Sequence record: PQ330092
Origin: Escherichia phage JP4
Strand: one strand, 5' to 3'
Length of the DNA: 64,000 bases
The first letter of the stretch is position 1, and every line of letters begins with the position of its first letter. The notes below the pieces were generated by a model. The model was not told the DNA's origin. It worked only from the letters and a program-made list of their open reading frames with translations, and ran no database searches. Positions 34,055 to 34,819 of this stretch are shown one piece after another. Made by a program: the position numbers and the translations under genes.

Positions 34055-34819
34055 TTAATCCTTTAATAATATGTTAAAATTATCATAAAAGTACTTTTTT
34101 AGTACTGAAATATAGTCTTCATTATACTTCAATCGAAGCAAATTTATTCCATTCTCCGTACAGTACGTGTTTTTAATTTTATCATTGTGTTGAGTTTGTT
34201 TTAGTGATTTTGCACCACCCCAATGTTCTGAACATTGAAAATGTTGTTCACCATCATATTCGATACACAAGTTTAAATCTTCAATATAAAAATCAAATGG
34301 CAATGTTAAAATATTCTTACAATTATCAAATCTCTTTTCTCTAACATATTTAAATGAAGATAATATAGTTTCTATATCTGATACTGCCTTGGATTGAGTA
34401 CTATCTCTCATACATTTTTCACACCCGTATCTACTATTCAAGTGATTGTCAGGTCGCTGGTAGAATATACCATGTATGGGGCAACTTATTGATATATGTG
34501 TTTTATTATTAACATAATTAGCCATACTATAATCAAATTTATTTTTAAATTTAAAATTGGCTTTTTTCTTGAAATTTAAAAAATTCTGTGGACTTTTTTG
34601 TCTATTTGTATTATATTCAATAGAACATTTCATGCATCCTTTACCACATGTATGGTCATTTGGTGTTTGTAGAAAAAATCCATGTTTTTCACAGCCAATC
34701 CATACTTTTGTTTTAGCATTATGATATTTAACCATACTATAGTCATATTGTATACCATGAACTTTTATTGAATTGGTTACAAATTTATATTTTGTCGATC
34801 TAGTGGTTGCATATTTCAT
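34055..34819 (-). CDS. Free-standing homing-endonuclease-like protein: tandem Zn-ribbon modules plus PD-(D/E)XK-like C-terminal domain
   Basis: Two repeats of (F/Y)DYS.V.Y....T...I.C..HG.F.Q.P..H....GC.KC; C-terminal IEYDGEQH nuclease-like motif; own promoter-like box and upstream terminator; inserted between gp25-like and gp6-like genes. Confidence 0.5.
   Translation of the reverse strand: MKYATTRSTKYKFVTNSIKVHGIQYDYSMVKYHNAKTKVWIGCEKHGFFLQTPNDHTCGKGCMKCSIEYNTNRQKSPQNFLNFKKKANFKFKNKFDYSMANYVNNKTHISISCPIHGIFYQRPDNHLNSRYGCEKCMRDSTQSKAVSDIETILSSFKYVREKRFDNCKNILTLPFDFYIEDLNLCIEYDGEQHFQCSEHWGGAKSLKQTQHNDKIKNTYCTENGINLLRLKYNEDYISVLKKYFYDNFNILLKD

Follow-up and report, generated by a model that had tools for sequence, protein, structure and literature searches.

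The question raised by this locus is whether the 254-aa open reading frame (ORF) lying between two baseplate genes of Escherichia phage JP4 (PQ330092) is a free-standing homing endonuclease which has invaded an intergenic site, as a reading of the sequence alone had proposed, or a gene of another kind. The DNA analysed here, referred to as the window, is a stretch of 64,000 nucleotides, and its 33000–36000 portion was placed by megablast in the genus Asteriusvirus, the 121Q/PBECO4 group of jumbo coliphages. The ORF listing of the window, together with Pfam and PHROG matches of the neighbours (Table 1), confirmed a 254-aa ORF with an ATG start between a gp25-like and a gp6-like baseplate wedge gene, the latter labelled ‘T4 gp6-like’ in the 121Q record. 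The strand, unstated in the sequence-only reading, is minus, and the stop codon of the ORF (ending at 34055) is indeed separated by 4 nt from the gp6 ATG at 34050. In the same region a stand-alone lysozyme gene (35300..35788, minus strand, 162 aa) adjoins an 887-aa baseplate hub/tail lysozyme gene (35825..38488, minus strand). The smaller product shares homology with the larger over the latter's C-terminal ~160 residues (phrog_13211, positions 727–885 of 887). The lysozyme domain thus seems to have been partially duplicated in tandem, and the pair is conserved in relatives.

Table 1 Features of the gp25–gp6 slot in the window.
Feature	Position	Strand	Evidence
gp6-like baseplate wedge gene, 1153 aa; downstream neighbour and probable target gene	30589..34050	minus	phrog_10646, 1955 bits
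gp6 nucleotides 1–84, converted to 121Q type along with the insert; backbone PBECO4-type	33967..34050	minus	Informative-site mosaic
ORF 3′ end (last ~19 codons), stop and gp6 ribosome-binding site; homologous to the 3′ part of empty spacers (putative relic)	34051..34112	minus	In-frame alignment
Free-standing homing-endonuclease gene, 254 aa, Hef-like / EDxHD	34055..34819	minus	ORF list, phrog_9084, Pfam DUF723, presence/absence, dN/dS
Vsr-like nuclease domain, residues ~141–254 (D176, E187, D189, H193, D213, K216)	34058..34399	minus	
Zinc-ribbon module 2, residues ~91–137 (C113, H116, H126, C133, C136)	34409..34549	minus	Pfam DUF723
Zinc-ribbon module 1, residues ~21–66 (C43, H46, H56, C62, C65); putative DNA-binding	34622..34759	minus	Internal repeat
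5′ leader of the insert with ribosome-binding site (AATCATGGAGTGATGT)	34820..34835	minus	Alignments
Native AT-rich box ATAAATATTTCTATATA	34836..34852	minus	Present in PBECO4, UE-S1, WPEC5, Turkey5 and TH47
Native intrinsic terminator after gp25; stem 34861–34884 (10 bp), UUCG loop, T-run	34853..34884	minus	Terminator scan; conserved in insert-free relatives
gp25-like baseplate wedge gene, 131 aa; upstream neighbour, unconverted	34889..35284	minus	Pfam GPW_gp25 E 1.2e-8, phrog_43

The protein combines two zinc ribbons with a nuclease domain. Both zinc-ribbon-like modules, already noticed from the letters, belong to a true internal repeat in which residues 24–65 align with residues 93–136, each module having the arrangement C-x2-H ... 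H ... C-x2-C (C43/H46/C62/C65 and C113/H116/C133/C136). The second module matched Pfam DUF723 above the gathering score (residues 86–136, E 4.8e-6, 26.8 bits against 20.9), and homologs of the protein also carry DUF4379 and CapR matches. According to Barth et al. (PMC10448857), the DUF723/DUF4379/CapR group consists of Zn-finger domains that occur in repeats and bind DNA in T5orf172 homing endonucleases of phages, hence the modules are predicted to bind DNA here too. The array is, however, fused to a Vsr-like nuclease instead of a T5orf172 domain, and Pfam gave no match to a T5orf172 or GIY-YIG catalytic domain in the 254-aa protein. The protein is also matched by phrog_9084 ‘homing endonuclease’ (E 4e-23). 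Across a 52-sequence family alignment (A1), C62, C65, C133, C136, I186 and G190 are invariant, and C43, C113, H116, H126, D176, E187, D189, Q192, H193, D213 and K216 are at least 90% conserved.

The C-terminal IEYDGEQH motif, read from the letters as PD-(D/E)XK-like, occupies residues 186–193, and the nuclease fold looked for was found, in the Vsr-like (EDxHD/Hef-type) branch of the PD-(D/E)XK superfamily. An AF2 model of the protein (pLDDT 94.5) gave fold matches to Vsr-like or PD-(D/E)XK nucleases, with RAP domains, VRR-NUC, TnsA and Hjc further down. Foldseek returned weaker matches of the same kind, namely RAP domains, Vsr (probability 0.97–0.98), TnsA and PvuRts1I/AbaSI, none of them at E ≤ 1e-3. 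Furthermore, hhalign of the A1 family profile against F-LimIII of Dickeya phage LIMEstone1, published as Hef-like (PMC3296691), showed a homologous nuclease core (probability 89%, E 2.3e-6, 85 columns), with the conserved residue columns aligned. F-LimIII itself has sub-threshold Vsr, DUF559 and REase matches in Pfam, and its pairwise BLASTP match to the 254-aa protein was not significant (E 0.18). Aligned with E. coli Vsr alone, the C-terminal sub-alignment also gave a non-significant hhalign score (E 0.4); the local, non-significant alignment sets D176 on Vsr D51, E187 on the F62 position and D189 on H64, and H193 and D213 would correspond by spacing to H69 and D97. The EDxHD family has Vsr-like catalytic residues and includes ‘bacteriophage Hef type homing endonucleases’, and the F62 position of Vsr is the site of its extra conserved acidic residue (Taylor et al., PMC3239194), with which the placement of E187 agrees. 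We consider the residues aligned in this way as putatively catalytic.

Other sequence searches added little. Neither phmmer nor hmmsearch with the family profile found anything useful among PDB sequences, a single chance match being coagulation factor XI (E 0.21), and NCBIfam gave no matches for the protein. The exact 254-aa protein is absent from a collection of 15 billion sequences, and a scan of viral_contigs returned just 121Q itself and one distant homolog.

These results bear directly on the existing annotation, in which the 121Q ortholog (RefSeq NC_025447, gene 584) carries the product name ‘HNH endonuclease’ and is noted as a ‘protein associated with group I intron’, and phrog_559 is likewise labelled HNH. 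However, the protein has no Pfam HNH match at E ≤ 0.1 and its fold matches are not of the beta-beta-alpha-metal type, so that the HNH label of RefSeq and phrog_559 is unsupported. The intron note is unsupported as well, because an Rfam scan of 33000–36000 detected no intron, and the ORF is intergenic, outside any intron or intein. An intron-associated HNH endonuclease is thus refuted by the fold and Rfam results and we regard it as highly improbable; the label is probably an annotation error which has propagated through PHROGs.

The gp25–gp6 junction was compared across relatives, as the sequence-only reading had suggested, and the insert proved far from universal. The whole 33000–36000 query is held in only three records, 121Q (deposited twice, 96.9% identity) and JNE01 (83.7%). 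In about 29 further Asteriusvirus records both flanks match in two or three pieces (closest ~99% identity) over a span ~737 nt shorter, hence the slot is empty. The two baseplate genes are directly adjacent, with spacers of 66–107 nt, in PBECO4, UE-S1 and WPEC5 and also in the more distant relatives Turkey5, EJP2 and Erwinia phage pEa_SNUABM_47 (genus Eneladusvirus). CMSTMSU (L007), with its fragmented annotation, was left out of the comparison. Carriers are the window, 121Q, JNE01, L011 and the metagenomic L012, whose protein is 98% identical to that of the window. Orthologs with 64%, 51% and 45% identity (P0004, P0008 and P0013, respectively) also occupy the gp25–gp6 slot in divergent phage contigs, P0008 and P0013 having three zinc-ribbon modules against two in the window protein, and a 41% homolog (P0060) is found in an unrelated genomic context. 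Orthologs of 45–64% identity in a single slot indicate that the association between this lineage and the slot is old.

The same slot holds a different gene in TH47 (L004, 2553..3260), an unrelated ORF of 235 aa with a match to phrog_314 ‘homing endonuclease’ (E 1.9e-14) and a weak match to the I-TevI DNA-binding domain. Its product begins MKSYYGFIYQ...NGIKYIGS, resembling a GIY-YIG motif by eye, and the gene was found only in TH47 among the phage records searched. The leader before this ORF, TCATGGAGTGATGTATGAAA (~20 nt), is nearly identical to the 5′ leader of the window insert.

A rival explanation is a baseplate accessory or structural protein that has been lost from some lineages, and the position of the gene inside the baseplate cluster, probably co-transcribed with gp6 across the 4-nt gap, would suit such a role. 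However, the protein has zinc ribbons and folds as a nuclease, most close relatives and the more distant genera lack it, and an unrelated nuclease gene can fill the slot; we give this explanation a negligible probability. The empty slots, the nuclease fold and the conversion tract described below instead bear out the proposal of a free-standing homing endonuclease in an intergenic site.

The insert had also been credited with its own terminator and promoter-like box. Both elements exist, but neither is the insert's own, since the terminator and the AT-rich box ATAAATATTTCTATATA also occur in insert-free relatives and thus belong to the native gp25–gp6 spacer. The promoter nature of the box found no support, in that a sigma-70 scan gave no promoter match directly upstream of the ORF and the box shows only a weak tendency to recur in the window (6 matches against 1.7 expected, with 3 of 100 shuffles reaching 6). 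It is possibly a candidate promoter that served gp6. The insert is placed between this box and the gp6 ribosome-binding site, hence its transcription probably starts from whatever served gp6, and gp6 in carriers is probably now translated from a read-through message.

The history of the insertion was followed in a mosaic test of the window against a carrier (121Q) and an empty genome (PBECO4) over 31500–37500, where the two references differ at 269 sites. The window is PBECO4-type at 246 of these, a backbone which is ~99.8% PBECO4-like, and outside the tract it differs from PBECO4 by ~12 positions in ~5.1 kb. A contiguous 121Q-type block spans 33967–34112 (18 of 19 sites), with the remaining five sites comprising three isolated 121Q-type sites, one PBECO4-type site inside the block and one matching neither reference. 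The left breakpoint of the window lies between 33949 and 33967, and on the gp25 side the first informative site (35030) is PBECO4-type. This gene-conversion tract is the expected footprint of homing.

Similar tracts were present on two other backbones. L012 has a WPEC5-type backbone, agreeing with that type at 136 of 139 left-hand and 188 of 201 right-hand sites. Its 29 sites between 33898 and the end of the insert are all carrier-type, and it is WPEC5-type again by 34853, with breakpoints at 33868/33898 and ≤34853. JNE01 resembles TH47 as far as 33967, and from 33979 on it is of the carrier type. The tract reaches 84–101 nt into gp6 in the window, 152–182 nt in L012 and 71–83 nt in JNE01, and extends <18 nt towards gp25 in L012. 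Tracts that always run into gp6, and essentially not towards gp25, are what double-strand-break repair after a cut on the gp6 side would give. The cleavage site of insert-free alleles would, on this evidence, lie in or next to the first 84 nt of gp6. The same gene on three backbones with mapped one-sided tracts amounts to a natural experiment, by which cleavage is likely to fall within ~100 nt at the beginning of the gp6-like gene. The three conversions are perhaps not wholly independent events.

Codons 6–9 of gp6 (AGA CAG TCT AAT, signature AGACAGTCTAAT) distinguish all five carriers of the 121Q-type clade from the seven non-carriers examined (0/7). The signature is missing from the most divergent carriers, L014 and L017, hence it marks the 121Q-type clade only. 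Between the window and JNE01 (33979..34105), nucleotides 1–72 of gp6 are 100% identical, and the adjoining 55 nt of the ORF 3′ end contain four mismatches, although the nuclease gene and its neighbours are strongly diverged between the two (dS ~1.0–1.4). Conversion of this patch at a later date could account for the identity, as could selection acting on a carrier-specific sequence for immunity or translation start.

Ordinary homologous recombination could in principle have carried the gene along as a passive passenger, its nuclease being inactive or unrelated to its own spread, and the jumbo-phage genomes of this group are mosaic anyway, with 121Q, TH47 and JNE01 differing patchily across gp6. 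The conversion tracts are nevertheless tightly anchored on the insert and one-sided in three backbones, the predicted catalytic residues are conserved, dN/dS is 0.1–0.2, and one slot has been tracked by the same lineage across divergent phages. Passive spread therefore appears quite improbable.

The best explanation, to which we assign a probability of roughly 0.85, is an intact free-standing Hef-like/EDxHD (Vsr-fold) homing-endonuclease gene with a homing mechanism, recently gained by a PBECO4-like genome from an unsampled 121Q-like donor. It is directly supported by the domain architecture, the nuclease fold, the presence/absence polymorphism, the one-sided tracts on three backbones and purifying selection. 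During co-infection by a carrier and an insert-free relative, the protein would bind the insert-free gp25–gp6 junction via its two tandem zinc ribbons, and the Vsr-like domain (putative catalytic residues D176, E187, D189, H193 and D213) would cut at or just inside the start of gp6. Repair of the break from the carrier genome would then copy in the gene together with the first ~70–180 nt of gp6. Carrier alleles may escape the cut because their spacer is altered and their gp6 codons 6–9 differ synonymously.

All four copies compared are intact at 254 codons, with a pairwise dN/dS of 0.09–0.21; the gene is under purifying selection and its function has been retained. Synonymous divergence between the window and JNE01 is about as high in the nuclease gene (dS ~1.0) as in the flanking genes (1.2–1.4), which suggests that in some carriers the gene may have a long history of vertical inheritance and not a recent arrival by homing. 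Purifying selection and long residence in one slot would also fit a nuclease domesticated for inter-phage competition or defence, for example to exclude a competitor's baseplate module or to attack satellites, with homing as a side effect, and nucleases related to homing endonucleases with such modules are engaged in phage–satellite conflict (PMC10448857). However, the protein matched no PADLOC defence model, most close relatives do well without the gene, and the locus gives no hint of a second target, so we consider domestication improbable.

In PBECO4, UE-S1 and WPEC5, the 3′ portion of the empty spacer (CCAGTACTGAACTAGTACTTTACTGAT-TTAAAGGAATAA) aligns in frame with the last codons of the ORF, TCAGTACTAAAAAAGTACTTTTATGAT and TTAAAGGATTAA separated by 15 nt (S V L K K Y F Y D ... 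L K D stop). This alignment scores 28 against 20.1 ± 2.8 for shuffles, of which 7 of 500 reach 28 anywhere in the ORF, and the match falls at nucleotides 706–738 of the 765-nt ORF. The orthologs with 45–64% identity conserve this codon string, whose residues form the terminal helix of the nuclease domain in the model. For these reasons we lean towards reading the PBECO4-type empty sites as deletion scars and the window as a re-invaded genome. The spacers of EJP2 and pEa47 show no such relic.

A broader scenario can be put forward tentatively, and we would rate it as doubtful when taken as a whole, in which this slot runs a full homing-endonuclease life cycle legible in the sequences. PBECO4-type empty spacers would be deletion scars which keep the last codons, the window a re-invaded scar, and a common leader would serve two unrelated nuclease genes that replace each other. 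Carriers would keep gp6 nucleotides 1–72 invariant because this stretch is a co-evolving immunity or expression determinant, and the variable-number zinc-ribbon array with its Vsr-like domain would form a modular, biochemically uncharacterised DNA-recognition architecture.

A second free-standing nuclease gene (56924..58021, plus strand, 365 aa) was observed elsewhere in the window, directly after the major capsid gene (55604..56779). Its product has several zinc ribbons of the DUF4379/CapR/DUF723 type and a C-terminal T5orf172-like region, with all Pfam matches just below gathering scores, and matches phrog_681 ‘endonuclease’ (E 3e-77). It is present in UB, 121Q, SP27 and phAPEC6 and missing (~1150-nt gap) in PBECO4, Salmonella SD phages and UE-S1; this gene is thus also polymorphic, and at least two nuclease-gene insertions set the window apart from PBECO4. 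A 108-aa protein consisting of a stand-alone T5orf172/MUG113 (GIY-YIG-like) domain (58417..58743, plus strand, Pfam E 4e-13) is annotated as ‘GIY-YIG nuclease family protein’ in both 121Q and PBECO4.

The gene in the window is a clean example of a known element type rather than a new kind, and the current understanding of such elements is unchanged. Its 121Q ortholog had already been deposited, mislabelled, and Hef-like genes and the sharing of one slot by unrelated homing endonucleases were already known. For Rak2-like phages, the literature names no free-standing homing endonucleases beyond generic ‘HNH-family’ ones. An annotation fix is warranted for a gene labelled HNH or intron-associated in RefSeq and PHROGs, given the evidence for a Vsr-fold, free-standing nuclease.

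Our results can be set beside several characterised systems. E. coli Vsr (PDB 1CW0) is a cellular repair enzyme nicking T:G mismatches and, unlike the window gene, has neither a zinc-ribbon array nor mobility. The EDxHD prototype I-Bth0305I (PDB 3R3P; PMC3239194), which acts as a homodimer on a pseudopalindromic target, is encoded in a group I intron in recA, whereas the window gene is free-standing, and its DNA-binding region consists of NUMOD/HTH repeats in place of the zinc ribbons predicted here. Hef-type genes of T4-related and Vi1-like phages share with the window ORF a free-standing, intergenic position immediately ahead of a conserved gene, and F-LimIII, like the window ORF, lies directly upstream of a baseplate wedge gene. 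The N-termini of the two proteins are unrelated, with F-LimIII (547 aa) carrying DUF7487 and the 254-aa window protein two DUF723 zinc ribbons. In the slot of the phage U5 gene Hef, an unrelated GIY-YIG-type gene reportedly alternates with Hef among syntenic phages, and TH47 shows the same pattern of slot-sharing.

The closest parallel for the zinc ribbons is provided by phage homing endonucleases of the T5orf172/GIY-YIG type (PMC10448857), which have the same tandem, copy-number-variable modules as the window protein (two, with three in orthologs P0008 and P0013) and which, like the window gene, occur at boundaries of genetic exchange between related phages. The second nuclease gene of the window (56924..58021) is itself of this type. 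The catalytic domains differ, being T5orf172/GIY-YIG in those enzymes and Vsr-like in the window protein, hence DUF723-type zinc-ribbon arrays combine with Vsr-like nucleases as well as with T5orf172 domains. This modular architecture bears on target diversification of phage homing endonucleases and possibly on the engineering of modular nucleases.
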